Shown here piece by piece: positions 5,272-64,000 of a stretch of DNA of 64,000 nucleotides. The translations under genes were made by a program, and so were the position numbers. The notes beneath the pieces were generated by a model that searched no databases, was not told the origin of the DNA, and was given only the letters and a program-made list of their open reading frames with translations. The first letter of the stretch is position 1, and each line of letters begins with the position of its first letter. Source of the DNA: an uncultured Candidatus Saccharibacteria bacterium (GTDB lineage: Bacteria; Patescibacteriota; Saccharimonadia; CAZHVB01); assembly GCA_964600295.1 (NCBI GenBank), contig CAZRIY010000001.1, positions 24,810-88,809 of the forward strand, read 5' to 3'.

Positions 5272-5296
5272 CCCGATAAGGTGTAGAATGGACTAA

Positions 5297-38042: not shown

Positions 38043-38101
38043 ACCAAAAGTGTATACTTCTGCCTAAATGGTGTCAAAAACATCGTATCCTGATTCCAAG
38101 C

Positions 38102-39273: not shown

Positions 39274-39278
39274 TTTAA

Positions 39279-40070: not shown

Positions 40071-40085
40071 GAGACAAGAAGCAAG

Positions 40086-40439
40086 TTACAACTTTTTGCC
40101 CGTATTAATTATCATGCTCGATAGGATGTTCTTTAACTCATTCGCCTCTGTTTTAAGCCGATTGATTTCTAAGGCAACCTTCTGATTGGCAGCCTCCAAA
40201 AGTTCTAGCCAATGCATAACTTCCTTAGCTTCTTTACGAGCGATCTTCAGCCTATGTAGGAAGTCGTTCTTGCCGAGTGCATCATTGGCCTCTCGATAGT
40301 TGGCCCCAACGGAGCCGGCAGAACCTACCAGCTGAGAGATTAGACGACTATTAACAACATCTTTTGGCAGCTTCTTGCAGAAACGGACCACCTCAACGCC
40401 AAAGTCGGTACTTCGTTTCTCGAAGTCATAGCTAGCCAA
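40086..40439 (-). CDS. Four-helix-bundle protein (23S rRNA intervening-sequence protein family)
   Basis: About 117 aa, all alpha-helical, with the conserved GS.GANY.EA core. Confidence 0.7.
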   Translation of the reverse strand: MASYDFEKRSTDFGVEVVRFCKKLPKDVVNSRLISQLVGSAGSVGANYREANDALGKNDFLHRLKIARKEAKEVMHWLELLEAANQKVALEINRLKTEANELKNILSSMIINTGKKL

Positions 40440-40476
40440 TTTGTATCCTTGTATCTTGTTGCTTGGAACTTACCAA

Positions 40477-41049
40477 CTACTGTTGGTTGAGACCTTCGTA
40501 GCAGGCCTTGGTGGAATCGTCGGTCTTGAGGTACTCGTTGATGGCTTGAACCACCTTGGATTCAGGCTTTAGCTCTTCCCAGAACAACACCTGATCGCGA
40601 TTGATGGTCATCTTATCTACCGGGCAATGCAATTCCGAGCGTCCAAGCTTGACCAGGGATACGCCGGGCTGCTCAGTTTGCTGCTGGCTGGCGGGCGGCT
40701 GTACCCTCTCCTGAACCTGGAGATAGTAGATGTTGGCTAGTTGCAACTGATCGGCTTCGACAGTTGGCAGATGGCCAAAATAGACCTGGCCATTGGTTAG
40801 AAAAACGGCAAACCATTTATCGGTAGTTTTCTGGCTGGTGGTAGTGCCAGTTGAGCTATCTTCGTTGTTCTTCATCATCGAGAACAGCAGAATTCCGCCT
40901 ACCAGTAGCACTACGGCTGCAACCAATAACAGTCCCAAAGAGCCTACTGAACGCCGACGCACAGGTGGTGGTAAAGGTCGGTGGTGCTGCGGGCTGGGTT
41001 CGCTGCTATTAGATTGATTGACGGTCGGCATGTCCGGCTCGTTATCCAT
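40477..41049 (-). CDS. Hypothetical membrane-anchored protein
   Basis: Pro-rich N-terminus, one TM, extracellular domain containing Cys. Confidence 0.4.
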   Translation of the reverse strand: MDNEPDMPTVNQSNSSEPSPQHHRPLPPPVRRRSVGSLGLLLVAAVVLLVGGILLFSMMKNNEDSSTGTTTSQKTTDKWFAVFLTNGQVYFGHLPTVEADQLQLANIYYLQVQERVQPPASQQQTEQPGVSLVKLGRSELHCPVDKMTINRDQVLFWEELKPESKVVQAINEYLKTDDSTKACYEGLNQQ

Positions 41050-41133
41050 ACAACTCCTTTTGTCTCTTAAAGCTTATGTATTGCTTATAATTTTCTAGCT
41101 TAAAGGATCAAGCCTATTGATGCAACCCTGGAA

Positions 41134-44100: not shown

Positions 44101-47100
44101 AGTTCCGCCAGCCTGCGCTAGCCATCGAGGAAGAGCATCGCCCGAGACTATGGTAGATAGACCGGTAGCTGCGCTGGTGCTTCTATTGACCCGGAGTTGA
44201 TCATCGGTCTGCAGTAAATCTGCTCCTGCGCGATAAAGATTTGTGTCAATCGTAGTACCATTACCCCATTCCAAAGTACCACCAGATAGAACTCTTAAAC
44301 GCGCAGCTGTATCGCCAATGAGTTTTATGTGTTGGGCCCAGTCACCAGCCGCACTGTTGGTAATATTAACGTAGCTAGCACTGGAGTCTGTCTGAAGTCT
44401 GATTTCTTCGCCAGCTGCATTTGAAACTCGTAGATCATCATCATTTCCCAAGGAAAGCGTGTCAGCAGCGCTGCGGTAAAGATTGGTATCGCCAGCAGAT
44501 CCAAAAAGAATCGTGGGTGATCCCGAAGGTCCAGTCGTTCCGATCCCAACTTGACCTGCTCCAATAGATGCATAGATAGGCTGGCTTGACCAGAATTCAT
44601 CATCAGTACGCAGATTGTTAGCTGCATTGCGGTAGAGATTAGTATCGCCGCCGATCAAAAGACCGCCACTCCCACCCGGGACTGATAGTTGAAGTTGGCC
44701 AGCACCCGAAAGTGTCATAGGGTTGCTAGCATCAGCGAACTGCCACCGGTGGGCCCCACCAGTCGGAGCCCAATAGCGCATAGCAAGCCCTTCACTAGAC
44801 AGACCATAGCCGCTGTCTCCAATCTGGACTGTTGGAACCGTATTAGAATAATTTCCAGAGGAGAGTAATACGGTTGAATTGTTTCGTAGAGTACCATTTA
44901 TATCCAGTTTATAGGTGGGTCCAGTAGTCCCAATCCCAACGTTGCCAACACCATCAATCCGCATTCTTTCGCTATTACCTCCTATAGCAGTTGTGGTGAA
45001 GAACTTCAGCAACCCTTGGTAGTCATCGGCCGTCGCCGACCCCTTAGCCCCCTGAATAGTAGCGAATGAATAAGGGTTAGCGGTATTACCACTCTCACCG
45101 GCAAAACGAAGCGATGGACCAATGTCTACCGCAGCAGCAGTATTGGAAACAAGGGTGACTGCGGAGGTGTCGAAGTTAGCGTTCGGACTGGTACCGACGC
45201 TAATTACTTGTAGTTTGCTTGTCGGCCCTATAGTGCCGATCCCAACATTGCCACTAGATAGAACTGTAATGTGCTGAGATCCGCTACCGTTAGCTCCCAG
45301 ATAAATAGGTCCCGTATTAGAATTCATGTACAGGTTGTGCCCAGAAGCAGATTGGTAAATATTTGCGGCTTGTGCACCAGAGAAGTACAGCTCAAAACCT
45401 GAACCATTTCCGATGTTCAGGGTGCCAGATACATCAGAGGTTGCAATGGAGGCGACTGCGCCCACTCTAAGGTTACCCGAAGATGCCACACAACCTGTAT
45501 CGCTAGCTTCGATGCAAACTCCACCGCCGACTACGTGGAGCCTTGAATCTGGCCCAGTGGTACCGACTCCGACATTGCCACTTGATGCACTTATGGCTAG
45601 AGGAACAGTTCCCGAGAATCCTGAACCTATACCGATCTTAAAGGTATCAAGATCGGCTCCTTGGGCGCCTATGGTCCAGCGGGCTACGCTAGAGTTCTCT
45701 ATAAGCCGAAGGCCGACTTCGTCGGGAGTCGCCGTTTCGGTGCCTATATCGGTATAAGCATCAGCGCCAGCGCCGCCATTATTAAGTAACTGGCCCACTA
45801 CAGAGCCGCTGCTACGTACGTCTAGCGTACGAGCCGGCCCAGTAGTCCCAATCCCCACATTGCCACTAGGCGTGATGTTTACGACATCACTTCCTCCGAC
45901 AGTAACTCTAAGGTTACCTTCGCTGACGCCATCGGTTTCTTGGATGCCAAAGGCCCAGTCCCGAGCGGTGGTGGTTTCGGCGGCTGTGGATTGCAGGTGT
46001 AAGCTGGTTGGTCCAAGGTAAAGATCTCGCCAGCGGGCAGAGGCTGAGCCGAGGTCATAAGTATCATCGGCTCCCGGGAGAATGTGCCCGGTAACGCTCA
46101 AGTTACCGCCCGAGGTTATGCCACCGTCTGCGTAGAAATTACCATCAACCTCCAGGTCGCCCTCTATGAACAAATCATCATCCGAAGCCAGACCATGGCT
46201 GGTGGCTCCGCCCGAATCCGAAATCGCGTTGTAGGCTAGGCCAGTTACCCCACCAATGTTCAGAGTATCCGTATCTGCAAGATAAACTTGTCCGCCCGCT
46301 GGATTTACCGTTAAATCTGCATCCGACGTAATATCGTCTCCATTGACAGTTAAGTCTCCCGTAATCGTAACGTCACCTGTAGTACCGACCGTTACAGCAG
46401 TTAAGACATCGGATTCATTGCGGATTGAGAAACTACCGCCGGGATCGGAACGCAATCGCCAATTTTTAGCAGCAGTATTATTTAGCCCCAAGAAGACCCC
46501 TGGGCTACTTCCCTGTGAAGCTGTTACCGACACTGAGCGTGCAGCGAAATCGGCATCGGCGCCGGACGGAGTTATGGTTAGATCGCCAACATTATCAGTT
46601 CTAAAATCTGTGTAATTAGTGCTGTCCGTATGGGTTAATCGCAACTGGGGATTGGTGGTATCAAGCACCTCGAATTTACGATCCGGGCCTATGGTGTTTA
46701 TGCCCACATTGCCGGTATTTAAGACTGTTAGTCTTTCTTGGAATGCTGACGTGTCAGACGACGAGATTGCCAAGCGGCCCGCTGGTGCCGCACCCTCTGC
46801 ACCCCGTACCTGCCTGAGGGCGCCACCTACGTAGGAGTCTGCGCTAGATGGTGTTAGTAGCAATTCGGCAAACGAACTATTGTTTGTGGTATCACTGTTT
46901 TCGATACGTGCGCCTACGCCGCCCCCAACATTACTGGCCTGTACTTCCAGTTTTTGTGATGGCGAGGTCGTGCCGATACCGAGATTACCAAAACTGTTTA
47001 GGCGCATGCCTTCAACTTGGTCATTACCGCTACCGTACCCAAAAACCAAATCTCCAGGCGCGGTTGAGGCAGTACGATCATGGAAGACCGCCCCTATAGT

Positions 47101-49779: not shown

Positions 49780-50033
49780 TTTGCCGATTTTTGTTTACAA
49801 GCATAAGTTTAATCCTGGTAGGGCGGAATGTAAACAATTTTTATTCAAAAAAATATGGGGTAATTTTGCGAGTATGTAACGTTTATTGTCGGTAATAAGT
49901 TTGACCAAAATGGGTTCTGGGGCACTACTGATCGGCCCAAACGGTCGAAATTGAAATGTTCGTTTAGATGTAGGGTTGTGGCTTCGACTACAAAACCCTC
50001 TAATTTCGGTTTTTTCGGCAGTTTCGCGATTTA

Positions 50034-53000
50034 TCATTGTTGCACCATATAATCGAACGTTAGATCGGCGGTTGTAGGTTCGGCAAGATGGATGACAAAA
50101 CCGGTGGCAGTTTTTTCAACCCAGTAAAAGCTGCCGGGGTTGGCTTGAGCGCTAACCACCACGTGGGGTACCCCACCGTAGGCGCGGCTAAAACTGTAGC
50201 TGGCGCTAGTAGCCCCGGCGGGAATTGTGAGAGTCCCTCGTGTATCAGCGTTGCCAATCACGTGGCCACTGATGACGATGTCGCCCACGCTGGTTAAGCC
50301 GGTAACCTTGAGTTCGGCTATGGTGGCTAGGCCAGTAACTTCCAACTTGGCAGAGGTTACCAGCTGCACCACCTTCAGTTCGTTGGCGGTAATGGTGTTG
50401 GCTACATTAAGATCGCTAAAGTCGGAGTTGTTCTGAATCGCCTCAGCATCCGTTTCGGCCTGGGCTGGGCCTTCAGTCTCCGCCTGAGCCTCATCACCTG
50501 GCTGGGCGTCCTCAACTGGTTCGAGTTGGCTCAGCCGTTGATCTAGCTCATCCACCCGCAGCTTAAGTTCGGCGGTGGCCTGGATGTTGTAGATGGGCAG
50601 GGCGCTGAAATTAATTTGTTTAAAGCCTAGGGAGTCCATGGAGACCAATTCTGGGAACAGGGCCTCAACTTCTTGGGCAATCAAACCTTGTTGGGTGGCG
50701 GTCCCCAGGTGACGATCGGGGAATTCCTCGGCCCGCCAGTTGTAAGTAACCGCCCGCAGCTGGCCAAAACGGTCCAGAATCGGTTCGAAGCCTTGAATGT
50801 TGGTCTTGAGGCGTTCGTCTGAGGAACAGGTGCCGGCAATCACGGTACCGTCCGCATCCTCCACACAGCCGTCCGTACCTATACCAACTCGCACATTTCC
50901 GGCCACCACTAATTTTTGAGCCGAGGGATCCGTAGTGCCGATGCCGACGTTGCCAGTACTATCAATGCGCATTCGTTCGGCATTATTTGTACCAAATAAC
51001 AAAGGTGTAGCTCCGAACGTGCCTATACCAAGCGAGGTATCACCTGCAGATACAATGTTAGTGGTGTCGGTAGCTGCCCGTCCGAAGTAACTAACCCCAG
51101 TGTAGGTGGGACCAAAGGCATACGTTTCTAGACTTGCTCCGCCGCTGGCGGTGTTTCTAACGGTCGATGCAGCGTATTTGGTGGTGGAGGTCGCTGTGAG
51201 GAATTGCAGAACATTGGCATCGGTTGATTCGGAAACCTCGAGTTTACCGGCAGGTCCAGTTGTGCCAATGCCGACGTTGCCGGCGCTTGTGACACGCATG
51301 CGCTCCGCAAGCGTGCCCGTGTTGGGATTTGTGTAAAATAGCAATGCCCCTGATTCATCTCCAGCTGTGGCATTTTCTTTTTGTCCCCAAATCCCGGCGA
51401 AGACAGCTTGGGCTGATTGAGCAGTTTTATAACCCTTAAATAACAAGCTTCCGCCGACACCAGCTGCTGCGGTTCGAGTATCATTGAGGATTTGGCTCCA
51501 GCCAGTACCGGTTAAACTTGGTGCTGTACCCGAAGCCACTTCCAGCCTAGCGGCGGGAGTAATAGTGCCGATGCCGACGTTGCCATCGCCCCTGAGCACT
51601 AGGATATTATCTGTGTTTAAGCCTCGAAACCCTAATAAATCATTCGGCGTTGATGCGTCTAGGTCGGTCTCGATAAAGAATCGATCTGTTTTATCACTGG
51701 CGGCAAAAATTAATCTTTTATCATCAACAGTTTCTCCGCCAGCGATTTCAATCTCACCGTTTACTTCTAGTTCTTCACTCGGACTATTAGTGCCAATACC
51801 GACTAGACCACCATTGAGAATCGTCATGTTAACGGCTGAACCGGTACCAAACTGTAAGGCAAAATTACCGGCCTTGGCACCTAATAGAGTGGCGTTTGCT
51901 AATGCATTGGTAAAGCTTGCGCCCGATGAATCTTGGCCAGCAGTTTGGATAGTACCAAGTATCGAGGTAACCCCGGCATTATCCTGCGAGAAAGATATAT
52001 AGGATGTACCAACTTCGCCCCCGTCGTTATCTGTATCTGCAGTTAGTAGTAAGGCGCTGTTGGCTCCGCTTTGGACCGCTATAGTTTCATTAGCAGTGGT
52101 ATTGGTACCCACTACTAAACGGCCCTCGGTAGGTGTGCTGTCACCGATCCCAACATTGCCTGAAGATTCCAGAACAGTTAGGTGGGTAGTTGCCGCACCA
52201 GCGTTGCGGACATTAAAGCTACTGCCGGCCCCCAAATCGTTAAAGATGCCGGGGGCCGTCAGGATGATTGAACCATTGGTTCCCGTAATGAAGTTGTTTG
52301 TAGCCCCTGCACTAACGGTAAGCCCTTGGGTCGTTCCATCAGAGCGATAGAAGCGAAGTGTGCCCGCGTTATTCAGACGGACATCACCGGTCACATCAAG
52401 TTTGAACCCAGGACCCGTATTACCAATACCAACGTTGCCGGTTGCACCATCGCCATATAGGAAGGTGGTGGCAAAGGTATTGGGAGTTGACTGATCGACT
52501 ACTCCCAGTTGGAAGTCGGCACCTGTACCTCCGCCGAAGGCAGAACTGAGTTTTATGGCTGAGGTACCGAGTGTGCCACTATCGCTATTTGTGAGTAGCA
52601 GACCGCCCTCAAAAGCCGTGCCGCTATCTGAAAGTATGGTTGTGTGATCGGCATACGCTGGCGTGGCACTAACATTGCCAAGTTTGGAACCACCGGAAAC
52701 CCTTAAGTTGCCGCTGGCAGATGCGCATCCAGTGTCACTAGATTCAATACAAACTCCGCCCCCAACGACATGTAATCGAGAATCTGGCCCCGTGGTGCCA
52801 ATCCCGACGTTGCCGTTTTCATCAATCCTCATCCTTTCTGTTGGTGATCCACCATTGGCAGTAGAAAAGCGTAAAGAACCAACGGGATTGACAGTCAGAG
52901 CATCCTCTTTATTACTACAAATATTAGCAGTTCTTTTATCTGCTCCGCTCAATCCGGTAGAACCAAACTGCATGCAACCCATAAGTGAGGTGTCCCCAGT

Positions 53001-56000
53001 CGCGGCGCTGGAAAGGACGAGATTACCGAAGGACGCTGTAGTAGTACCCGCGTTATGAACTTGAAGGTCTGTTCTAGTACCGCCCCCTCCCAGGCCACCT
53101 GGCGCAGTAGTCCCGATGCCGACGTTGTTACCAGCAGTTACATATAGCGCATTGTTATTGACATTGAAGATACCGTTAGTGTTTGCGCTAACAGCGACCG
53201 TACCGCCATCGCTATTTAAGTGTAAGGTACTGGCGGCACCGTTGTTTCGCGCCAGGATTTCGTTATCATCCATGGTTATGTTAGTGCTAGTAGTGGATCC
53301 GGTTACCAAGTAACCTCCACTGGCCAAGGCAGAATCTGTACCACCAACTACGTGAAGTTTTGCGGACGGATCGATAGTGCCTATGCCAACGTTGCCACCC
53401 GATGGCTGCAGATTTAGATTGTAGGCAGTTGCGGTACCATCAGTTCTTTGCGCCTGTAGCCACGGGTCGCCATCTCCGGCAACTCCAGCTAGCAAACCGT
53501 AGTTCACATCAGTATTCGTTAGGTAAAAACCTCCGCTTGCTGAACCTAGTGTGGGTGAGTTTACGGCTGTCGAACCAGTGATTTGCAGCCGCACTTTTGG
53601 TGCAGCAGTACCAATACCTACATTGCCGGTTACATTCAGTGAGGCCGTATGGGCGGAGTTGGTGATTAGTCCGGTGGCTACAGTGGGCGAGCCACCCTGC
53701 AAGGTATCGGCATAAACCGCAGCAGTAGTGCCGGCATGGAACTGGACGTTATCCAGGCGAATGGTCTCGGCTATACCTTCGGTGAATCGCAATTTGGCAT
53801 AGGCAGTATTGGCCGGGGCGGTGCCAGTAACGGTAACTTTTTGCCAGCCACTGACACCAGTAGTGGCAGTGATGGTAGCACTTTCGCCCAATGATACTTG
53901 ACTAGCATCAAACCAAAGAATTCTGACCCGCCAGTTGCCCCCAAGACTGCCATCTTGGGCCTTCAGCCAATAGTTGCCGATATAGTCGGCGGCGGCGGTA
54001 GCAGGCATAAAGTCGCTCTCAAGAAAGTGAGTGCCCGTAGCATCGCTGACCATTTCCAGGGCGTAGCGGCCGCCGCCGCCCGTTTCGGCCACGGCAGTGG
54101 GTCCGCCGGACAGGGACCAGTTGGTGGTGTTACCGCTTTCAAAGCCAGAATTGGGTACTAGGTTGGTGGTGTCGCTATTTACAAAACCGGCGAGACCATT
54201 GAGAACCTGGACATTACCGGCCACATCTAATTTATAGGTGGGGGTGGTTGTACCGACTCCTACGTTACCGGTGGAATCTATCACCAATCTTGCAGTACCT
54301 TCATCGGCAATGGCAAAGCCACCCGGGAAGGAATTACCCGATCCTCCAATTGTAAGATCCCAGTTGCTGCCTTCGGTGCCATGAGTTAGACGCATACCAT
54401 TTAATCCAGTGCCGCCGGCTCCTTGGACTTGGAGACGAGTACCAGTACCGGTGATAGAAGTAGTGCCTATGCCGATGTTGCCAGCAAAGTATGAGTTCCC
54501 AATACCGGTTACGGTGAGTTCTCCGATAGTGGTTAAACCTTTGGGCACAGCAGTTGAAAGTGGGCTAAAGGCTAGCGGAGTACTACCAGTGTTAACCTGT
54601 ACGTTATCGAAATAAACAAATTTGCCAACTGTGGGTGCACTTGTTGTACGTATATGTATTGTCCCGGTATTGTCACTTGCAGTTGTAAGGATCATGGTAA
54701 CCCGCTGCCACTGATCTCGCAGACTCATATCAGCGTTGTATTTAGTTTGGGTAGAACCGGCAAAACCTCCATCATCTCCGATAGTTATTTGGCCACCGTC
54801 CCAATCTGCTGGCACGTATACATAGAAATACATTGAGTAAGTAGTGGTTGCGGCCAAGACCAGTGTAGGTGGAAGGGCTAGCCGGTTATCATCTTGATAT
54901 GTAGCCTTTAGTGAGTAGAGGCCGTGAAGAGCTTGATCAGTAACTGAGGCAATAGTATTGGTTCCCCGCTGCGCCCAACCGCTGGTGGAGGCATTTTCGA
55001 CGCTTGGATTTGATATTAAGTTGGTTAACCCACCACCAAAGCCACCATATGTTTGTACAAAATCATGATCAGTTTGTGATTGCAGGATATCCCCTCCTTG
55101 CAAGTCAAGCTTAGCTTGGGGAGCAGTAGTGCCAATTCCGACATTGCCACCAGGAGTGATATTTACAAGATCAGATCCACCCATGGTGACTCTCAGGTTA
55201 CCTTCGCTGGCCCCATCAGTCTCTTGAATGCCAAAGGCCCAGTCCCGGGCCGTGGTGGTTTCAGCGGCAGTAGATTGAATATGCAAGCTAGTGGGTCCGA
55301 GATAAAGATCTCGCCAACGGGCTGCCGCTGAGCCCAGATCGTATGTATCATCGGCTCCGGGCAGAATGTGGCCAGTGACGGTTAGGTTGCCGCCAGAGGT
55401 TATACCGCTATCCGCATACAGTGTGCCGTTAACTTCTAGATCGCCCTCGATAAATAGGTCGTCATCCGAAGCCAAACCATGGCTGGTAACTCCGCCTGAA
55501 TCCGAAATTGCGTTGTATCCAAGCGCGGTTACCCCGCCGATATTCAAGGTATCACCATCCGCAAAATAGACTTGCCCGCCGGAAGGATTAACAGTTAGGT
55601 CTCCGCCACTATCGGCCTGGAATTCGGTGTAAACCGAGCCATCGGTGTGTGTGAGGCGCAGCTGAGGGTTGGAGGCATCCAGTACATCCAGCTTGCGATC
55701 TGGCCCTGTCGTATTGATGCCGACGTTTCCGGCATTATTTATACGCATACGCTCGGCTTCAGTCGCAGAACCATCTGGCGTTGTATAAAACTGCAAACGG
55801 CCAGGCATATCGCCATCCCCAGGAGTCGCATCAACTGCAGCAACTATTCTAGCGGCCGTTTCGTATGAATTGGCATCATAGCCGGTAAATGAGAGCCCTC
55901 CAATGGAGTCGCCAGAAGATACAACAGCTGGGGACCCAAGGCTACCACGAGATTTTCTGACTTGAAGCGCTACACCGTTGGCGTCCGCACTGGCGCGCTC

Positions 56001-59000
56001 AAACAGACCATTGGTACCCGAACTCAAAGCCGTGTGCAGTAAGGCTCCTGGACTAGTCGTACCGATACCCACATTACCGCTGTTGAGAATTGTCAGGATC
56101 TCTGCCGCTCCAAGGTTGTTTATGAAATGATAATCATTTGCTTGAAAGCGCAGAGCGGTGTTGGCTGTGCCCGCATCGTTGAGCGCACTCAGCCGTACCT
56201 GCGAAGCGGAGGTAGATATTGTGAAGTTTTGGTCGGTTCCAACCCTCACATGAAGAGGTGCTTGAGGAGTGATAACCCCAACACCAACACCACCCGAAGC
56301 TTTCAAAGTAAGGATGTTAGCGGTATTAAAAGCAGTACCCGCATCATTAGTGGAGTTGAACGAAAGGATACCATCAGTGGTGCCGTTATCAACAAAGAAT
56401 ACTCGTTGCCCCGAAGTAGAACCCGTGTTTTCAAAATATAGCCTGTTTTTGCCGCTGGTTCCCGAGCTTGAAGTTAGAATCAACCCTTCGTCAGCATTGG
56501 GAATCGTTATACCACTTGAACCACTGCCCACTACGTGTATTTTTCCTAGAGGGCTGGTGGTGCCAACGCCCAGTTTGCCTGAAGCATCTACCACAAAGGG
56601 CGTGGAATCCGAGAAGGTTCCGTCATCGTTAACTCTGAAAGCCGTAGCAGTACCAGCTTGGGTAATCTCGAAGGTGGTATCGGTAGTTTGATCAGTCAAT
56701 GTAATTTCAATATCCCGCCCATCGGTTGTCGAGATAGTATTGCCATTGGCATAGGCGTTCTGCAATGTTACCGAGGGGTCAGAACCGCCCGAACCCGAGC
56801 AAGTGGCAAGTTGATTTGAACCGTTGCGGCAGACTGAGGTGGAGCCGGCGGCGCCTAGCGCGGTGACGATTACATTACCGGAAGAGTTAACCCCAAAAAG
56901 ATCGCCAGATCCGACGGTAAGTAGATATGCAGGAGAGGTATCACCAATGCCGACCCTGCCTGTGTTATCTATCCGTAACCTCTCAGCATTACCATCGCGG
57001 TAAACAAATGGAATAACTGATGTGCTGCTAGTTGATGAGATGCCCTGTAAACCATTTATATTGTCGACAAAAATGCCAAGCCGACGATTATTTGTGCCGT
57101 CATTAAGGTAAGTAGAAATACCGGCGATACCGGACGTTTGGCTGTTTATAACTTGCGGAGTAAATCCTGTGCCTACTCCATCAGGTAGAGTTGAAGTCAA
57201 CCCTGCACCAATCTGGAGTGCAACACCAGGGTTAGTTGTACCAATGCCGACATTACCGTTTTGATCTATTGTCATCCGCACGCTCGGGGTTGGAGATGCC
57301 CCAGCATCATTAGGGGTAGTATAGAATGCTAACTTCGCACCCGAATCGGTATCAGCACCATATCCTTCAGTAGTTAAAGCTTCTATTTTGGCTACAACCT
57401 TGGGATTGGTTGTAGTAAAACTGGTATCATTTGAAGCAAATTGAATAACACCCAAGACATCATCTGTTGCACTGCTCGACACATCCCCACCTAGTCGAAG
57501 AATCGCTGAAGAACCGGGATTTGCAGATACATCCAATTTTACCGCCGGGCTTGTAGTACCGATGCCGACGAAACCTAAATCTGATCCGGCACCACCTTTA
57601 ATCGTCACTCGAGTTCCGGTAGTATCGCCTGTTCTGAAAATTAAATCATCGCTAGAAGTTCCTCCCTGAAGCTGCAACGGACCACCCGAAGACATGACAG
57701 TGAGCGACCCTGTGCCTGTACTATCTATCTTGTAGTTCCCAACAGAAGTATGCGTTATATCAACCCCATCGGATCGGCCCGCCCCCTGTGAGCGAATGCC
57801 CGTATCGCTTCTTACGTGTAGCGAGGTGCCAGGCGCTGTGGTGCCGATGCCGACGTTGCCGGTTGGTGTTACGTTAATTACATCGCTTCCCCCGACGATT
57901 ACCCGTAGGTTGCCTTCGCTGACTCCATCGGTTTCTTGGATGGCAAAGGCCCAATCTCTAGCTGTTGTGGTTTCAGCCGCGGTAGATTGAAGATGCAAGC
58001 TAGTGGGTCCCAAGTAGAGATCGCGCCAGCGGAGGGCGGCAGACCCCAGATCGTAGGTATCGTCGGTAGCAGGTAGCAAATTGCCTGCTAGAGTCGTGGC
58101 GGAACTAGTTACCGCTAAGTAGCTGGTGCTACCAGCATTGTTCTGGACTTCCAGCAGGTTGGCACCAATGGGTGTGGCGTTGTCCCGAACCGTTAGGGCA
58201 CCACGAGTAGCGTCTAGAGTGATTTCGGGAGAGGTTGAAGCGTTGTAGGCGGTTTGGAGGGTGGCAGCACCACCCCCAGTTAGACAGTTACCAGCAGTGG
58301 AACAAAGATCGTAGGTGCCGGCAGCGGCATCAGCCAGGCGGTAGGTAATGTCGGCAGTGGGGTTAACAACCGACAGTACGGTTTCACTGGCATCAGCACT
58401 GGTCCCTTCCCAAATCAAGCTAGCATCGCTCTGGACACCAAAGAGGTCACCATTACCGACGGTTAGAAGATAAGCCGGAGTTGTATCGCCGATACCAATG
58501 CTGCCACCGTTAGCGGAGTCAACTGTTAGTACCCGCACGTAGTTGGTAACTCCGCCAGTGGTGTCCGTATCTATATCAAAGCCGAGCTCGTCGTCGGCGC
58601 CATTTATATCACCAGTACGAAGAACCATGGAACGATTAATTGGGCCAGTTATGTTGTTGACTAAATCCGCTGTATTACTAAGCACCAAATCACCCGCGCT
58701 GGTAATCTTTAGGCTTTGCTCCATTACATCGTCCAGTCGGGTATTAAACACCAAATCGGCATCCGCCGTGCTGGCCGATCCCGTTGTCCAAGTATCAGTC
58801 TTGACCGCGTCGATTTGTGCGGCCGAGCGAAATGCACTAGCTCCCGACAGAGATAAACCAAAATCTATCCTTGTCCCAGCCGAGGTACCAACATCGATAT
58901 TTGCTATCCTTAGGGCCGTTGCGGTTGAGTTAGCGCTAGTGGGGTATACTTCTAGTTTTGCTGTGGGGCTGGCGGTACCTATGCCGACGTTGCCGGTAGC

Positions 59001-62000
59001 AGAATTTGCATAAAAGGTAGAGGCAGCGGTCGATTTATTGTGTAGGTTTAAGATTGGGTGATTACCAGTGCTATCTAGTGTAATTCTAAACGCACTATCG
59101 GTACTGGCATTACCACTGGCATCGAAAAGCAATTGGTTTGTACTGCGCCCTATTGAGGCAATCTGCCCGCCATCGCTATAATTATACGCATCTGAATTCA
59201 ATTCCCCCGCTATAAGTTGAGTGGCCTGCACCTGTAGGGTGCGTCCAGAGTTGGTATTGTCAACCATACGGATCAAGCCCGCTTCAATACGTACTGGATT
59301 ATTTGCCGCTACATCAGCACCCAACCAGGATGTCCCGTTTACGTTGAGTTTCGCTCCTGGAGCGGCGGTACCAATTCCGACGTTGCCGGCGGCATCAATC
59401 ACAAATGGAGTGGTGTCAGTGAAAGTACCGTCATCATTGACCCGAAAAGCATCAGTAGTACCGGCTTGGGTAATTTCGACAGTTTGATCAGTGGCAGTGT
59501 TGTTAAGAGTAATCTGGATATTGCGCCCATCGGTGGTAGAGATGGTATTACCGTTGGCATAGGCATTTTGCAGTGTTACCGAGGGATCGGAACCGCCGGA
59601 GCCGGAGCAAGTGGCCAGCTGGTTTGAGCCATTGCGGCACACCGAGGTGGAGCCAGCTGCGCCCAGGGCGGAAACCCGAATACTGCCGGTGACATCCAGG
59701 ACATCAGCCGGAGCGGAAGCTGAACCTAAAGCCAAGCTGCCAGCACTATTAAAGTGACTCAAGACAGTTCCGGATGAATTTTGCAGCTGCAGCAGATCGG
59801 CGGTTTGAGAAGCCGCAGCTTTAACTACAAGAGCTTTGCGGGTTGAAGATGTGGCCTGAACAATAAGCGCTGTTGTGTAGTCAACATTAGCTGCATTGAA
59901 GCCCAGACTGACCTGAGGTAGTTCAATATTAACACCGCCCCAGTCCGTCCTGACTCCATTGCTATTTGAACCGCTAAAATAGAGGTATTGCTGATTTGTA
60001 CCGCCAGATCCAATCGAATAATAACGTCCATCGGCAGCCAGGGTTGGAAACTTAATACCGCCAGATGTGGCTGAGCCTGGATAATCCACTCCGACGCCAA
60101 CGGTGAGCTTACCTGCGTTACTTAGGGAAGCAAGAATTGCCCCTGTCGAATTTTGCCATTCCTGGAGGTTGGCTGTTTGCAAAGCAATTCCCTGTACAAC
60201 TAATCCTTTGTTAGTAGTAGCACCAGTTGATATAGCCACCTGGGCCAGGTTATCGGCTGTAGTGAGAGGGTTAATCCGTAAGGCATTCGCAGTACCGTTT
60301 TGGGTAATGGTTACTGTTTGATCAGTAGCGGTATCTGATAGCGTGATTGCTATATTTCTACCATCGGTGGTGGTGATAGTGTTGCCGTTGTTGTAAGCGT
60401 TTTGCAGGGTTACCGATGGGTCGCTACCCCCAGAGCCGGAGCAGGTTGAGAGTTGGTTGGAGCCGTTGCGGCAGAGCGAGGTGGAACCGGCGGACCCGAG
60501 TGTCGCCACAGCCAGAGTGCCGGTAAAGGTAGCGGCAGAGGTGATGGTTTGGCCGTTAATTGTGCCGCTTACAACATTACCACTGGTATCAACTTGGAAG
60601 GCATTGCCTGTACCGATAGCTAGGGTGGTGCTGACGTCAAGCGCGCCAGTGATATTGGTGGCACCTTGAAGCTCAATGGTATCGGCTGAGTTCAGAACGA
60701 TATCGTTACCGACGCCGCTACTGGTGAGAGTCAAAGTACCGCTACTTTGCACCAGCGGGGTGGTTACCGAGGTGCTAAACGTCGGATCACTCACCGTAGC
60801 AATCGTAATATTACCGTTGGCTCCCCCATCGCTGAGTAACAGGTTAGCACCGGCGGTTAGTACCCGTTCGTTGGTGAGAGAGGGGTTGAGGCTAAGGGTA
60901 ACGTAGTCCGCACCAGCCGGGGCTGAACCCCCTCCGCCGATACAGTTGCCAAAGTTGGTGCAGAAGTCGTAAACCCCAGCGGGGTGGGCCGGAATACGGT
61001 AGATAGCGTCGGCCACTGGGGGTATAAAAGCCAGGGTACTGGTAAAACCACCGCTGGTAGCGGTGAGAATGGTCGAGCTGTTGCCCTGGAGGGTTAGGGC
61101 TTGGTCGCTGGAACCGATGGCGAGGTCCCCGGTGGGGGTAAGGGTATTGGTAAAGAGGGTTTGCCCGACGCTGAGGTTAGATTGGAAGGTATTGTTGCCG
61201 CTGAAGACTTGGTTATTACGGTCGAGCAGGGCGACATTAGGGGTTAGACGGGCATCGGCTAGGGTGCCGTGGCTGATGCTGCTGGCATTGAGGTTGGTAA
61301 TACCAGCGCCGTCGCCGGCAATAGTAGTAGCACTCAGGGCTTGGAGACTGGTATTGTCCTGGACGGTTAGATCACCCTCGAGCAAGGAATCACCGTGGAC
61401 CAGCAGGCTGCCGAATTCGCCTTCACCAGAGGTAGTTACGCTGTCAGAACTAAAATCATTAACCGTGACATCACCCAGATTGCTGCTGCCGGTAACCTCG
61501 AGGTTGTTGATAGTGGCCAGACCGCTGACATTAAGATCTACGAAATCGGCCAGTTGGCCACTAATATGGTTGACGGTTAGCTGATCAATATGCATCTGCT
61601 GTTCGGAGGCCTCTTGGCGCTGCTGTTCTAGGCTGGCCAGCTGGTCCAGGCCCACTGCCAGGCCATGAATCAACCACCCCAGGGCGCCGGTGACCAGTAA
61701 TATTAGTAACAGGGGTGCTAATGCCCAGCGGCGAGGAGTGGGATGGTCTGATTCTTCCGAGAGGGTTTCCTCTGGTGGAATAATGGGTGGCTGGCCAGCC
61801 GATTGATCGGGGGAAAAGATGTTGGGCTCTGCCGGAGAAGTATTGGGCGTTTGCGTATCTAAACTATAGGGAGCATATATCTGAGGTGTGTCGGCGGGCT
61901 GTGGATTATTATTCGCTTCTGGTCCGGTTAGAGACCACCCTGCCGCCGGCACGACTGCGACCGCCTCGGGGCGATCGGCTTCTATCGGGGCTGGTGGGGG

Positions 62001-62942
62001 CCAATAGGTATTGGGCTGGATTTCCGGTTCAGGGGCAGGCGTTGGTTTTGTTTCCTCAAATTCTGTGGGTGGAATTGGCAACACCGGAGAAGCCGATGTA
62101 TTTTCGGGGTTAGCTGAGCCGATTGCCGTCGAATGGATGGCGTGACTGGGATTTGGTCTCGTTTCAGATGGTGAAACCGGAGTTTCGGGCGCAATTAATT
62201 GTGCTGGCGGGATTTCAGTTAACTGAGGTGATGCAACTATCGGGTTTGGTAATGCTTCGTGGGGTGGGGTGGATTCTACGGGCTGAGAAACTGGAGGATC
62301 CTGCCCATGGTAGCTAGCTGGAGTAGCAAGAGGATCGGCTACGGGATTGGCTGGTTCTTCGGAGGTAGATGGAACCTGTTCTGCCGCAAAGGCTGTTTGA
62401 TTTTCGGAAACTAGGGCTGATGCGGGAACCGGAATTTCGGTTGCATCCAGAGGAGCAACGTTAGCTGGGGGGATAGCAGGTGCAGACTGCACATCAGATC
62501 CTGACACATTAGCGGAATCGGGATTTGTACTTCTAAGAGCTTGGTCAGAGATCGGTGAAGGCGGTTTAGATGAAACAACTTGTGTCTCATCTGGGATAGG
62601 GGGATTGGTTTGCTCTGGTGATCCCACTTCACTGCGCGATTGGACGACGGGTGGGGGTTGAGTAGCCCGAGCCTCTTCTATCACCGCAGTGATGGGGTGC
62701 GAAGCAATCTGGCTGTTAGTAGTGGGGTTAGACTTACCCGCTTCCAGGGGCGACGGCGTAACTGCAGCTACCTTGAGAAAACCACTCTGGGATGATTCGC
62801 CGGGGCTGTTATCAGCTTTAACATGTGAATAATTAAACTGTTTAGTTAAACGGTGTAGACGGGTACGACAGCGGTCAGAGCAAGTTTTGGCTCCTCTGCG
62901 ACCGCTAAAATTAGTTCCGCAAACCTGGCAATTTGTACTCAT
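50034..62942 (-). CDS. Giant (4302 aa) membrane-anchored repetitive surface fibre protein: zinc ribbon, Pro-rich cytoplasmic region, TM, coiled coil, tail-fibre modules, intramolecular-chaperone (S74-like) domain, C-terminal lectin-like domain
   Basis: N-terminal CQVCG..CSDRC. About 400-aa P/S/T-rich region. TM at ~61660-61735. Three ..LCRNGSNQLxTCSGSGGSDPSVTLQNAY.. modules. SSDERLKTNIQGFE...VTYNWR...GLIAQEVE motif (~50560-50830). Terminal ..DTRGTLTIPAGATS...TATGFVIHL..DLTFDYMVQQ. Confidence 0.8.
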   Translation of the reverse strand: MSTNCQVCGTNFSGRRGAKTCSDRCRTRLHRLTKQFNYSHVKADNSPGESSQSGFLKVAAVTPSPLEAGKSNPTTNSQIASHPITAVIEEARATQPPPVVQSRSEVGSPEQTNPPIPDETQVVSSKPPSPISDQALRSTNPDSANVSGSDVQSAPAIPPANVAPLDATEIPVPASALVSENQTAFAAEQVPSTSEEPANPVADPLATPASYHGQDPPVSQPVESTPPHEALPNPIVASPQLTEIPPAQLIAPETPVSPSETRPNPSHAIHSTAIGSANPENTSASPVLPIPPTEFEETKPTPAPEPEIQPNTYWPPPAPIEADRPEAVAVVPAAGWSLTGPEANNNPQPADTPQIYAPYSLDTQTPNTSPAEPNIFSPDQSAGQPPIIPPEETLSEESDHPTPRRWALAPLLLILLVTGALGWLIHGLAVGLDQLASLEQQRQEASEQQMHIDQLTVNHISGQLADFVDLNVSGLATINNLEVTGSSNLGDVTVNDFSSDSVTTSGEGEFGSLLVHGDSLLEGDLTVQDNTSLQALSATTIAGDGAGITNLNASSISHGTLADARLTPNVALLDRNNQVFSGNNTFQSNLSVGQTLFTNTLTPTGDLAIGSSDQALTLQGNSSTILTATSGGFTSTLAFIPPVADAIYRIPAHPAGVYDFCTNFGNCIGGGGSAPAGADYVTLSLNPSLTNERVLTAGANLLLSDGGANGNITIATVSDPTFSTSVTTPLVQSSGTLTLTSSGVGNDIVLNSADTIELQGATNITGALDVSTTLAIGTGNAFQVDTSGNVVSGTINGQTITSAATFTGTLAVATLGSAGSTSLCRNGSNQLSTCSGSGGSDPSVTLQNAYNNGNTITTTDGRNIAITLSDTATDQTVTITQNGTANALRINPLTTADNLAQVAISTGATTNKGLVVQGIALQTANLQEWQNSTGAILASLSNAGKLTVGVGVDYPGSATSGGIKFPTLAADGRYYSIGSGGTNQQYLYFSGSNSNGVRTDWGGVNIELPQVSLGFNAANVDYTTALIVQATSSTRKALVVKAAASQTADLLQLQNSSGTVLSHFNSAGSLALGSASAPADVLDVTGSIRVSALGAAGSTSVCRNGSNQLATCSGSGGSDPSVTLQNAYANGNTISTTDGRNIQITLNNTATDQTVEITQAGTTDAFRVNDDGTFTDTTPFVIDAAGNVGIGTAAPGAKLNVNGTSWLGADVAANNPVRIEAGLIRMVDNTNSGRTLQVQATQLIAGELNSDAYNYSDGGQIASIGRSTNQLLFDASGNASTDSAFRITLDSTGNHPILNLHNKSTAASTFYANSATGNVGIGTASPTAKLEVYPTSANSTATALRIANIDVGTSAGTRIDFGLSLSGASAFRSAAQIDAVKTDTWTTGSASTADADLVFNTRLDDVMEQSLKITSAGDLVLSNTADLVNNITGPINRSMVLRTGDINGADDELGFDIDTDTTGGVTNYVRVLTVDSANGGSIGIGDTTPAYLLTVGNGDLFGVQSDASLIWEGTSADASETVLSVVNPTADITYRLADAAAGTYDLCSTAGNCLTGGGAATLQTAYNASTSPEITLDATRGALTVRDNATPIGANLLEVQNNAGSTSYLAVTSSATTLAGNLLPATDDTYDLGSAALRWRDLYLGPTSLHLQSTAAETTTARDWAFAIQETDGVSEGNLRVIVGGSDVINVTPTGNVGIGTTAPGTSLHVRSDTGIRSQGAGRSDGVDITHTSVGNYKIDSTGTGSLTVMSSGGPLQLQGGTSSDDLIFRTGDTTGTRVTIKGGAGSDLGFVGIGTTSPAVKLDVSANPGSSAILRLGGDVSSSATDDVLGVIQFASNDTSFTTTNPKVVAKIEALTTEGYGADTDSGAKLAFYTTPNDAGASPTPSVRMTIDQNGNVGIGTTNPGVALQIGAGLTSTLPDGVGTGFTPQVINSQTSGIAGISTYLNDGTNNRRLGIFVDNINGLQGISSTSSTSVIPFVYRDGNAERLRIDNTGRVGIGDTSPAYLLTVGSGDLFGVNSSGNVIVTALGAAGSTSVCRNGSNQLATCSGSGGSDPSVTLQNAYANGNTISTTDGRDIEITLTDQTTDTTFEITQAGTATAFRVNDDGTFSDSTPFVVDASGKLGVGTTSPLGKIHVVGSGSSGITIPNADEGLILTSSSGTSGKNRLYFENTGSTSGQRVFFVDNGTTDGILSFNSTNDAGTAFNTANILTLKASGGVGVGVITPQAPLHVRVGTDQNFTISTSASQVRLSALNDAGTANTALRFQANDYHFINNLGAAEILTILNSGNVGIGTTSPGALLHTALSSGTNGLFERASADANGVALQVRKSRGSLGSPAVVSSGDSIGGLSFTGYDANSYETAARIVAAVDATPGDGDMPGRLQFYTTPDGSATEAERMRINNAGNVGINTTGPDRKLDVLDASNPQLRLTHTDGSVYTEFQADSGGDLTVNPSGGQVYFADGDTLNIGGVTALGYNAISDSGGVTSHGLASDDDLFIEGDLEVNGTLYADSGITSGGNLTVTGHILPGADDTYDLGSAAARWRDLYLGPTSLHIQSTAAETTTARDWAFGIQETDGASEGNLRVTMGGSDLVNITPGGNVGIGTTAPQAKLDLQGGDILQSQTDHDFVQTYGGFGGGLTNLISNPSVENASTSGWAQRGTNTIASVTDQALHGLYSLKATYQDDNRLALPPTLVLAATTTYSMYFYVYVPADWDGGQITIGDDGGFAGSTQTKYNADMSLRDQWQRVTMILTTASDNTGTIHIRTTSAPTVGKFVYFDNVQVNTGSTPLAFSPLSTAVPKGLTTIGELTVTGIGNSYFAGNIGIGTTSITGTGTRLQVQGAGGTGLNGMRLTHGTEGSNWDLTIGGSGNSFPGGFAIADEGTARLVIDSTGNVGVGTTTPTYKLDVAGNVQVLNGLAGFVNSDTTNLVPNSGFESGNTTNWSLSGGPTAVAETGGGGRYALEMVSDATGTHFLESDFMPATAAADYIGNYWLKAQDGSLGGNWRVRILWFDASQVSLGESATITATTGVSGWQKVTVTGTAPANTAYAKLRFTEGIAETIRLDNVQFHAGTTAAVYADTLQGGSPTVATGLITNSAHTASLNVTGNVGIGTAAPKVRLQITGSTAVNSPTLGSASGGFYLTNTDVNYGLLAGVAGDGDPWLQAQRTDGTATAYNLNLQPSGGNVGIGTIDPSAKLHVVGGTDSALASGGYLVTGSTTSTNITMDDNEILARNNGAASTLHLNSDGGTVAVSANTNGIFNVNNNALYVTAGNNVGIGTTAPGGLGGGGTRTDLQVHNAGTTTASFGNLVLSSAATGDTSLMGCMQFGSTGLSGADKRTANICSNKEDALTVNPVGSLRFSTANGGSPTERMRIDENGNVGIGTTGPDSRLHVVGGGVCIESSDTGCASASGNLRVSGGSKLGNVSATPAYADHTTILSDSGTAFEGGLLLTNSDSGTLGTSAIKLSSAFGGGTGADFQLGVVDQSTPNTFATTFLYGDGATGNVGIGNTGPGFKLDVTGDVRLNNAGTLRFYRSDGTTQGLTVSAGATNNFITGTNGSIILTAPGIFNDLGAGSSFNVRNAGAATTHLTVLESSGNVGIGDSTPTEGRLVVGTNTTANETIAVQSGANSALLLTADTDNDGGEVGTSYISFSQDNAGVTSILGTIQTAGQDSSGASFTNALANATLLGAKAGNFALQFGTGSAVNMTILNGGLVGIGTNSPSEELEVNGEIEIAGGETVDDKRLIFAASDKTDRFFIETDLDASTPNDLLGFRGLNTDNILVLRGDGNVGIGTITPAARLEVASGTAPSLTGTGWSQILNDTRTAAAGVGGSLLFKGYKTAQSAQAVFAGIWGQKENATAGDESGALLFYTNPNTGTLAERMRVTSAGNVGIGTTGPAGKLEVSESTDANVLQFLTATSTTKYAASTVRNTASGGASLETYAFGPTYTGVSYFGRAATDTTNIVSAGDTSLGIGTFGATPLLFGTNNAERMRIDSTGNVGIGTTDPSAQKLVVAGNVRVGIGTDGCVEDADGTVIAGTCSSDERLKTNIQGFEPILDRFGQLRAVTYNWRAEEFPDRHLGTATQQGLIAQEVEALFPELVSMDSLGFKQINFSALPIYNIQATAELKLRVDELDQRLSQLEPVEDAQPGDEAQAETEGPAQAETDAEAIQNNSDFSDLNVANTITANELKVVQLVTSAKLEVTGLATIAELKVTGLTSVGDIVISGHVIGNADTRGTLTIPAGATSASYSFSRAYGGVPHVVVSAQANPGSFYWVEKTATGFVIHLAEPTTADLTFDYMVQQ
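60777..61547. repeat. Partner copy of the ~0.75-kb inter-gene direct repeat
   Basis: See 48370-49140. Confidence 0.7.
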
Positions 62943-63007
62943 ATTTTTGGTTTTTGTCTAAATTATTTGTTCGTTTATATGTGTCATTATCAAGCATAAC
63001 CGTTACA

Positions 63008-63047
63008 CTTGTCAAGATCATTTGTGTGGCATTTCAGGCTTTTGGGT
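63008..63047 (-). promoter_or_regulatory. Putative strong promoter for the 4302-aa gene
   Basis: On the minus strand: TTGACA, a 17-18 nt spacer, then TGATAAT, about 70-100 nt upstream of the start codon. Confidence 0.4.
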
Positions 63048-63414
63048 CAGTTGTAGCACAACAATCGTCTGCGGATCCGTTTTGGGGGCAGATATGAGGA
63101 AAACTTAGTAGCGTATAGATTAATGTAGATATAATATCAACACCTTTCCTCTGTTGCAGAATGAAATAATAACCATCTGAGTAATACTTGTGTCTTATCG
63201 GTAATAAGCGCATTTTTGGTATTGTAGGATAAATAACAACGATACTAACAGGGGTGTCAAATAATATGTGCTGGTGAGATTTGGTGTGGCTAAACGATCT
63301 TTGTATTACTAGTTTATGTATGTGGCTTTCTATGTGTATTAGTTGAATACATAATGTGTCGTACAATCTAGATTTTGGTTTTTTAATGTCGTACAATCAG
63401 GTAGTGAGCCTCCG

Positions 63415-63688
63415 ATGATGTTCAAATATGTTTACGTTCTTCGTTCAGAATCCAACGGTTATCTGTATATCGGTAAGACTTCAGATCTGAAGCGACGCTA
63501 TATTGAACATCAAAAAGGTATAAGTGGGTTCACCAAGAAGTTCGCCCCCTGGAAGTTAATCTATTACGAAGCCCATACGGATGCAAAAGATGCTGCAAGG
63601 CGTGAAGGATATCTAAAGACTACTCTCGGTAATCGGGCACTTAAGCGTATGCTTCGCAATAGATTGAATCGGAGGTCTACTACCTGAT
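63415..63688 (+). CDS. GIY-YIG nuclease family protein
   Basis: YVYVLRS...GYLYIGKTSDLKRRYIEH GIY-YIG motif. 90 aa. Confidence 0.75.
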
Positions 63689-64000
63689 GCAGATCAATAC
63701 TCTCCTACTTGATTGGCTGGAACACTTGGAAATCGAGCAAAACCGCTCCCAGCGGACAATCACCAATTATCATCACTATTTGCAACGGTTCGTCGAATTC
63801 TCCGGTGATATAGCGGTAACTAAGATTGATTCGGAACTTATACGGCGTTGGCGGTTATGGCTCAACCGCTTGGCCGATGACACCGGCCGCCCCCTGGGTA
63901 AAGCCACCCAAAACTACCATCTGATAGCCTTGAGGTCATTCCTCCGCTATCTGGCCAAGCGTGATATTGACAGTTTAGCTTCAGATAAGATAGAGCTGGC
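63687..64000 (+). CDS. Tyrosine recombinase (XerC/XerD/phage-integrase family), N-terminal SAM-like domain; partial, continues past the window end
   Basis: ..WLEHLEIEQNRSQRTITNYHHYLQRFVEF.....LRSFLRYL.. matches the integrase N-terminal core-binding domain. The ATGA overlaps the GIY-YIG gene. Confidence 0.7.
   Translation, partial: MQINTLLLDWLEHLEIEQNRSQRTITNYHHYLQRFVEFSGDIAVTKIDSELIRRWRLWLNRLADDTGRPLGKATQNYHLIALRSFLRYLAKRDIDSLASDKIEL

Follow-up and report, generated by a model that had tools for sequence, protein, structure and literature searches.

Free-standing GIY-YIG homing genes, such as the Seg genes of phage T4 and the relatives of I-TevI, are small selfish genes that lie between host genes and are co-expressed with them. 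[quoted passage not shown] The intervening sequences of 23S rRNA have an open reading frame (ORF) in the loop of a long end-to-end helix within the host transcript. GIY-YIG (URI) nucleases of the UPF0213/SLX1 type are recognized by their single-domain size and their motifs; the bacterial members of the UPF0213 type have no function known to us, and we know of no description of nucleases of this type within a conserved terminal hairpin with flanking duplications. Here we analyze a 64,000-nt stretch of a Saccharibacteria (Saccharimonadia) chromosome (contig CAZRIY010000001.1, hereafter "the window"), at the end of which a small GIY-YIG nuclease gene directly precedes the gene of a tyrosine recombinase. 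The GIY-YIG gene lies in a small, probably mobile cassette that resembles each of the above systems and that differs from each of them in a defining feature. The explanation that we favor, and that we consider reasonably probable as a whole, has four parts: the recombinase is a core Xer gene, it is preceded by an xer-specific motif, a mobile GIY-YIG cassette has lodged between this motif and the xer start codon, and the cassette would be bridged by a translational relay into Xer.

The GIY-YIG ORF (63415..63687 on the plus strand, with an alternative start at the ATG of 63418) encodes a stand-alone UPF0213/SLX1-type domain of 90 aa that matches PF01541 at 6.2e-17 (62 bits, with a cut-off of 22.6). 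Alignment with its relatives shows invariant Y5, Y7, Y18, G20, R28, E31, and R62-R63-E64, the motifs can be written as YxY...YIG, R, E, and RRExYLKT, and the closest solved structures are those of the UPF0213 proteins BH0048 (1zg2) and EF2693 (1ywl) and of SLX1. There is also a weak match to a PHROG annotated as "homing endonuclease". A homing endonuclease of the I-TevI/Seg type was nevertheless rejected as an identification, since the 90-aa protein comprises the nuclease domain only and scores 20 bits against a cut-off of 56 with TIGR01453. Unlike homing genes, the cassette encodes a protein without a DNA-binding domain and is found at unrelated loci rather than at one homing site, and it has terminal inverted repeats, 6-bp duplications, and ORF-less derivatives, all of which are described below. 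The gene and the recombinase gene behind it are both transcribed away from a 4302-aa ORF (50034..62942, minus strand), as the original prediction held. Its statement that the two genes overlap is also right as to the overlap itself, which takes the form TGATG rather than ATGA: the GIY-YIG stop codon lies at 63685-63687 and the Xer ATG at 63687-63689, with one base in common.

Within the window, only the 5' part of the recombinase gene is present (104 codons, 63687..64000, plus strand), and the N-terminus encoded there is a SAM-like domain (PF02899 at 4e-12), with further Pfam matches to PF13102 and PF13495. An exact look-up of the GIY-YIG protein yielded a 12.9-kb contig (L001) that is 100% identical to the window over an overlap of 1101 nt and reaches 9.7 kb past it, and the complete recombinase of 304 aa was obtained from this identical contig (L001:2242-3156). 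The full protein, which is recorded with PF00589, combines an N-terminal SAM-like core-binding domain with a C-terminal catalytic domain, and alignment to E. coli XerD shows that the catalytic residues R150, K174, H249, R252, H275, and Y284 are all present. The best match among solved structures is E. coli XerD itself (1a0p, 6e-40), in which the RKHRHY motifs are visible as well, and models of XerC, XerD, and archaeal XerA are matched over their full length at 5e-70 to 6e-75. Unlike the XerC and XerD equivalogs, the protein remains under both NCBI cut-offs (252.4 bits against 335.15 for TIGR02224 and 251.4 bits against 329.6 for TIGR02225); the only cut-off that it passes among the Xer models is that of XerA_Arch (NF040815, 236 against 220), a model built on archaeal proteins, which makes this a match at the level of naming only. 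An integron was tried as an identification and rejected, because the scores with integron-integrase models are below their cut-offs (150.6 against 265 and 96 against 435), the cassette points in the direction of the recombinase gene, and cassettes of its type were found away from any recombinase.

Hundreds of homologs of the recombinase at 63-86% identity were found by database search, and a scan limited to one genome per species gave 80 Xer loci, each from a different assembly and nearly all labeled Saccharibacteria or Saccharimonadia. On the 3' side of xer, nearly all related loci have a convergent minor-pilin/PilD (type IV pilus) cluster, and on the 5' side there is a conserved Rot-bPH-(NUDIX)-NDK-(BacA) block on the opposite strand that is often directly adjacent. 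The same recombinase is found in the same position, at 63-75% identity, in genomes that have no giant genes. With its two-domain architecture, RKHRHY residues, full-length model matches, and class-wide synteny, the protein resembles the dimer resolvases XerC, XerD, and XerA. The original prediction had left it open whether the gene could simply be a chromosomal Xer, and this is borne out by the six catalytic residues and by the presence, in each of about 80 Saccharimonadia genomes, of one protein with 63-86% identity, the position being shared in nearly all of them. The recombinase is a conserved housekeeping Xer of the Saccharimonadia lineage that lies outside the giant-gene block, a core gene rather than an island integrase or an invertase. 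On contig L001, the convergent genes past the recombinase comprise two unknown genes, pilin-like genes, PilD, PemK/MazE, PilC, and ATPases of the PilB/PilT type. The pair of PemK toxin and MazE antitoxin (L001:7286-7845) is embedded among the type IV pilus genes, with PilD on one side and a pilin-like gene on the other.

The spacer between the 4302-aa gene and the GIY-YIG gene had been described as AT-rich and about 470 bp long, and it measures 472 bp (62943-63414) with 35% GC. It was also said to hold a duplicated 12-mer at 63355-63366 and 63390-63401; two exact copies of TGTCGTACAATC do exist, on the plus strand and 30 nt apart, and their true positions are 63357..63368 and 63387..63398. The first copy holds the -10-like hexamer TACAAT, and in the second this hexamer ends at 63397, 3 nt before the core of the hairpin described below. 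With at most one mismatch, GTCGTACAAT occurs in the 64-kb window only as these two xer-upstream copies and one chance-level match. In most of the 29 related loci for which 200 nt of upstream sequence were printed, GTCG[T/C]ACAAT lies just 5' of the Xer ATG, and 30 of 70 relatives have the motif (at most one mismatch) no more than 70 nt 5' of the Xer ATG, where 0.0035 occurrences per 70 nt are expected from a background rate estimated in the remainder of the same loci. In 13 loci the motif ends 6 nt before the Xer ATG; in 11 others the gap is 13-14 nt, and TGnTAYAAT comes after the motif. Two copies of the motif, likewise 30 nt apart, also occur in the closest relative (L082, 86% Xer identity). 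The TGTCGTACAATC copies are a conserved xer-specific upstream motif, and the repeat is most simply read as the xer promoter, possibly with an operator. Since a -10 hexamer (TACAAT) would be expected to lie at this distance from +1, a gap of 6 nt points to a leaderless mRNA, which xer may have. Two other identifications of the motif were rejected: a dif-like site adjoining xer, since the conserved block is only about 11 nt long and has no dyad symmetry, and a general promoter consensus, since GTCGTACAAT has no other occurrence in the window above chance. The duplicated 12-mer thus appears to be a promoter motif and not a recombination site.

Comparison of the window with L082 shows where the cassette lies. 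In L082 only ATATGT separates the second motif copy from the Xer ATG; in the window, CAG, the cassette, and CTG stand between the second copy and the same ATG. The cassette is therefore placed after the promoter motif of xer and before its start codon. Next to Xer, a GIY-YIG gene was found in 0 of 83 related Xer loci, and among the small co-directional ORFs directly 5' of Xer in 10 relatives there was none of the GIY-YIG type and one PadR. We believe that the GIY-YIG gene is probably not a partner of Xer, and that a cassette of about 290 bp (~63398-63686) has instead become lodged between the promoter motif and the Xer ATG, probably through insertion by a small mobile GIY-YIG cassette.

The ends of this cassette form a structure that the original prediction did not mention, a 21-nt inverted repeat (18 of 21 positions complementary; 63396-63416 and 63668-63688) that exactly brackets the GIY-YIG ORF. 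Its 5' arm (63396..63416, plus strand) reads ATCAG-GTAGTGAG-CCTCCGAT, with the invariant core GTAGTGAG at 63401-63408, and its 3' arm (63668..63688, plus strand) reads ATCGGAGG-TCTACTAC-CTGAT, with the invariant core TCTACTAC at 63676-63683. The 3' arm holds a GGAGG 11 nt 5' of the Xer ATG, whose first two bases are the last two of the arm. The same architecture was found in L085, L088 (three copies), L090, L134, L213, L214, L217, and L219, so that a common design can be written for the family: GTAGTGAG, a pyrimidine-rich strand, the ORF, the purine-rich complement, TCTACTAC, 3-5 nt, and a host ATG. In 12 copies the invariant cores GTAGTGAG and TCTACTAC lie within a helix of 20-24 bp. Outside the window, the genes behind the GIY-YIG-bearing copies are unrelated host genes, one of them encoding a LysR-type regulator. 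A GIY-YIG profile finds 17,093 representative clusters at an E-value of 0.001 or better, and the hairpin signature is confined to a small subgroup of this stand-alone family.

Four copies of 70-120 nt have no GIY-YIG ORF. Two measure 119 nt from core to core (one at L088:5303, in tandem behind a GIY-YIG copy, and one in L134), and the other two measure 70 and 78 nt (L088:3625 and the minus strand of L085). In L088 (GCA_041749575.1), the tandem of a GIY-YIG copy and the 119-nt ORF-less copy occupies positions 4960-5430, the 6-mer ATGGAT occurs three times at its junctions before the start of the host gene, and the third copy, of 70 nt (3625-3694), lies 1.3 kb upstream of the tandem. A scan for the two-armed pattern across about 1 Mb of fetched DNA gave 16 matches, as opposed to 0-1 in shuffled sequence. 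A metagenome scan with the 15-mer ATCAKGTAGTGAGCC returned 120 stretches, only one of which (L134) had TCTACTAC at most 450 nt downstream, and the rest were taken as chance matches. Three scans of viral contigs with the two-armed pattern gave 0 matches, and permissive Rfam scans of the window cassette and L088 gave no relevant family.

The window holds one further hairpin with the same cores, GTAGTGAA...TCTACTAC, which is 52 nt long and lies inside the annotated N-terminus of a 2881-aa ORF (49463-49514, minus strand; z = -5.8). It encodes SSSEVGSLDQSVAYPSSTT in frame, no duplication flanks it, and the 4302-aa protein contains a paralog of its 5' half, VQSRSEVGSPEQ. Its membership in the family is doubtful, and it may be a chance occurrence or a remnant.

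The pairing of the two ends has been maintained while their sequence changed. When ten elements are aligned, paired cells make up 85% of the total, compared with 35-42% in slid registers, and 12 pairs have changed on both sides; the observed score was reached by 0 of 500 shuffles. The terminal helix is present in every minimum-free-energy fold, with z-scores of -2.3 to -6.7. The core pairs are G-C, U-A, A-U, G-C, U-A, and G.U, followed by an A/C apposition and a further G.U, and additional U.G and G.U pairs occur in the outer helix. These wobbles would suit a sense RNA better than the antisense strand, and DNA hairpins are possible as well. The C-termini of the proteins, STT or VYY, are TCTACTAC translated in two frames, and the conservation is therefore at the nucleotide level rather than that of the protein.

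Insertion of these elements appears to have left a mark at their borders. The 6-mers at positions -9..-4 and +4..+9 relative to the cores are identical at 5 or 6 of 6 positions in all 11 non-window copies, which amounts to 59 of 66 matching positions, as opposed to 7-24 in other registers. The start codon of the host gene is part of most of these 6-mers (as in ATGGAT, ATGAAT, and GTATGC), so that an insertion would copy the ATG without disrupting the host ORF. The window cassette shows MITE-like features, namely terminal inverted repeats, a family with varied host genes, and absence 5' of Xer in the 83 relatives. Taken together, the hairpin, the varied sites, the ORF-less copies, and the 6-bp repeats mark, we infer, a mobile element. 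No description of GIY-YIG cassettes of this kind or of their hairpin was found in the literature, and the hairpin-bounded GIY-YIG family is apparently undescribed and probably mobile. REP/RAYT systems differ from it in encoding an HUH/Y1 transposase where the cassette encodes a GIY-YIG nuclease; unlike both these systems and Correia elements, the cassette is placed at host start codons and keeps an open frame through the element. The host transcript of the cassette is an mRNA leader, in contrast to the rRNA that hosts 23S rRNA intervening sequences.

What moves the elements can be approached from the tie between the nuclease and the ends. The nuclease, being of the SLX1/UPF0213 type, would most likely act on a hairpin or cruciform into which the ends of the element itself fold, a role that we put forward as speculation. 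We tentatively extend this to the whole family: the GTAGTGAG...TCTACTAC elements might be a new class of autonomous mobile elements of about 290-320 bp in Saccharibacteria, whose sole protein, an SLX1-like GIY-YIG nuclease of 90-104 aa, acts on the hairpin or cruciform ends of its own element, and which prefer host start codons, duplicate the ATG, and return translation to the host through stop/start overlaps. This is a possibility that we hold to be well short of probable. A different and rather unlikely explanation is that the hairpins are MITEs moved in trans by a conventional transposase, the GIY-YIG gene being a passenger or a selfish settler. Flanking duplications of 6 bp, which are typical of DDE-type transposition, are present at the hairpin copies outside the window, the copies of 70-120 nt exist without any GIY-YIG ORF, and the 90-104-aa protein is a nuclease domain only, with UPF0213 and SLX1 as its nearest structures. 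In contrast, protein subgroups and classes of terminal sequence appear to pair up when judged by inspection, in that MPSSELS...VYY proteins go with CCTA/TAGG ends and MFY...GSTT proteins with ATCAT/GTGAT ends, and this would be better explained by a lasting functional tie than by repeated capture. The ends of the ORF also overlap the hairpin cores, and no transposase was seen among the called genes, with most loci covering a few kb around the element. The GIY-YIG nuclease is the sole protein that the elements encode. Even if a transposase acted in trans, the cassette would still be mobile DNA before Xer, and only the nuclease would not be the mobilizing enzyme.

Several points weigh against the four-part explanation and the mobility that it assumes. 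The main one, for the window copy itself, is that it has no 6-bp duplication (TACAAT compared with ATGCAG, 1 of 6 positions identical). What marks it as an insertion is therefore that relatives lack it and that it belongs to the family, not a visible scar; either it was inserted longer ago and has since been remodeled, or it arrived in another way. The exact ends of the elements are provisional. The family has only about 12 members, several of which were found through the GIY-YIG protein, making the sample small and biased. We know of no strand-transfer activity for a 90-aa nuclease domain of this kind and of no precedent for GIY-YIG-driven transposition. As to expression, the distance of 11 nt between GGAGG and the ATG is long for a Shine-Dalgarno sequence, and it is from sequence geometry that the promoter is read as leaderless and that the upstream ORF and the coupling are proposed.

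The order of start and stop codons through the cassette suggests how Xer could still be translated. A possible upstream ORF of 10 codons, MSYNQVVSLR* (63386..63418, plus strand), would end in a TGA that overlaps the GIY-YIG ATG at 63418, again as TGATG. In other family members an ATG stands 9 nt before the core. It opens an analogous short ORF in the GIY-YIG copies and, in the two 119-nt copies, a frame of 43 codons whose closing TGA overlaps the host ATG. Because the upstream ORF, the GIY-YIG gene, and Xer are chained by TGATG overlaps, the sequence permits a series of termination and reinitiation events. In the proposed relay, transcription would begin at the xer promoter, and ribosomes would pass from the short upstream ORF to the GIY-YIG ORF and on to Xer, reinitiating at each overlapping UGAUG. 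The 3' arm of the hairpin would provide the GGAGG as a Shine-Dalgarno-like sequence for Xer, and the 5' arm (CCUCC) would mask it until the helix is opened. Alternatively, and possibly in combination, RNase III may cut the helix, or the nuclease may cleave a DNA hairpin or cruciform.

The same features could be read as signs that the GIY-YIG gene is a host gene acting jointly with Xer, perhaps in DNA repair or junction processing, with the hairpin acting purely as a regulatory RNA (an RNase III site or a translational operator). The stop/start overlap fits this idea, as do a predicted helix that hides the Shine-Dalgarno sequence and start codon of Xer, the G.U wobbles in the invariant core that favor pairing in a sense RNA, and the recombination theme offered by SLX1 relatives that cut branched DNA. 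We nevertheless regard it as decidedly unlikely, as the pairing of GIY-YIG and Xer is unique to this genome among the 83 Xer loci, the same unit of hairpin and GIY-YIG gene stands before unrelated genes (the LysR-type regulator and unidentified ORFs), and other copies have the 6-bp flanking duplications. The mobile cassette remains our preferred reading of the gene.

GIY-YIG genes were also encountered elsewhere in related genomes. Distant homologs lie between bPH and ndk at L026:4487-4684 and L038:5112-5198 (partial matches with 47% and 62% identity), the latter adjoining an apparent tRNA gene as judged by eye, and the bPH-ndk neighborhood seems to attract GIY-YIG genes repeatedly. In L215 (positions 1600-2100) and L216 (P0131 homolog), a related GIY-YIG gene of 86 aa without a hairpin lies just 5' of a tRNA gene, and the first 12 nt of this tRNA gene (GCCGCCATCGTC) are repeated on the far side of the GIY-YIG insert. 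This suggests a different mode of insertion in another GIY-YIG subgroup.

On its other side, xer adjoins a variable region. In the window, the rotamase-bPH-(NUDIX)-NDK-(BacA) block lies at 35314-40070, with bacA at 39279-40070 on the minus strand, and about 23.6 kb between bacA and xer (40071..63686) are extra in comparison with genomes in which ndk or bacA is adjacent to xer. This region contains a gene of the 23S_rRNA_IVP family, ORFs of 190, 2881, 80, and 4302 aa, and the GIY-YIG cassette. The 23S rRNA intervening sequence protein family gene (PF05635, 4.6e-19; 40086-40439, minus strand) lies 15 nt 5' of bacA at the inner edge of the region. The 4302-aa ORF in the bacA-xer block (50034..62942) has Peptidase_S74 and CBM_4_9 domains, with Peptidase_S74 (endosialidase chaperone) at residues 4041-4100, and the two giant ORFs (41134-62942, minus strand) share diverged repeats, including 21-26 copies of a motif whose translation, judged by eye, approximates GNVGIGT. 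The direct repeats in these genes correspond to repeats of the proteins that have diverged. A homologous giant gene occupies the corresponding position in L082. The strong minus-strand promoter that had been predicted for the giant gene corresponds to a sigma-70-like site, TTGACA-18-GATAAT, 5' of it (63015..62986, 11 of 12 consensus positions), and the promoter block CTTGAC(A)AGTGTAACGsTTATGCT is kept in L082, where the flanks have diverged. Across L002-L081 the ndk/bacA-xer junction varies, with ndk 60-100 nt from xer, ORFs of 600-650 aa in between, or several kb of other genes. The bacA-xer stretch is a lineage-specific variable hot spot with Xer as its conserved flank, and nothing ties the origin of the variable region to Xer.

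The original prediction had raised the possibility of a mobile-element border, and this holds only loosely, insofar as xer borders the variable region, although Xer is its conserved flank and not part of the insert. One version of this idea takes the recombinase and the GIY-YIG gene as the border of a giant-gene island that carries its own integrase or entered at a dif-like site. The 23.6 kb with both giant genes do separate bacA from xer, two genes that in relatives lie side by side or almost so, the interval is variable in many Saccharimonadia, and in streptococci the single Xer gene is reported to be linked to its dif site (PMC2731167). The island is highly improbable all the same: the recombinase is found at the same place in genomes without giant genes (63-75% identity), it scores below the integron-integrase cut-off, the conserved xer-upstream block of about 11 nt without dyad symmetry is not dif-like, and this motif occurs only in the two xer-upstream copies, with none elsewhere in the window. 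None was found at the bacA end of the region in the 64-kb window either, in which no search was aimed at att-like end repeats, and with the same limit no duplicated 28-31-bp Xer site was seen at 40.07 kb and 63.4 kb. The version with an island integrase is largely refuted.

It had also been suggested that the recombinase might drive phase variation. In this reading it would be an invertase that switches expression of the giant surface-protein gene through inversion of the promoter or of a gene segment, and it does lie close to a strong promoter-like site and to a repetitive giant gene. Between 40 and 64 kb, however, a search for inverted repeats gave none above chance level that flank the promoter or any segment. 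The best pairs there are 16-30 nt long with 73-94% complementarity. One of the chance-level pairs (I5) has an arm in the spacer between the 12-mer copies; about three such pairs are estimated to occur by chance. Tyrosine invertase models give 47-51 bits with cut-offs of about 221, and the same recombinase is present in genomes without a giant gene. The suggestion fails on these grounds, and we find an invertase scarcely credible.

The wider window is ordinary in its gene content. It encodes a tmRNA (tag AKSIFAKLANVFNVQQFAPAVA; 6183-6578), a class A RNase P RNA (13755-14123), and seven tRNAs (14575-37254), and is therefore chromosomal DNA.

For the biology of these bacteria, the recombinase is thus an ordinary gene, and its presence should not be taken to indicate a mobile island or phase variation of the giant surface protein. 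Its upstream motif, with the 6-nt spacing, could serve as a usable marker for leaderless promoters in the Saccharibacteria lineage. The cassette is the part worth following, as we did not find its kind described. A GIY-YIG subgroup that is tied to a covarying hairpin, to duplications, and to ORF-less copies leads to the hypothesis of a structure-specific action of the nuclease on the element's own ends, and the cassette may be among the smallest mobile units that are self-contained. If the elements are indeed autonomous and duplicate the start codon as proposed, their insertion would be nearly harmless in a gene-dense genome. Through its placement at the start codon and its stop/start overlap, a selfish gene may in this way persist in a streamlined genome while the host gene stays active.

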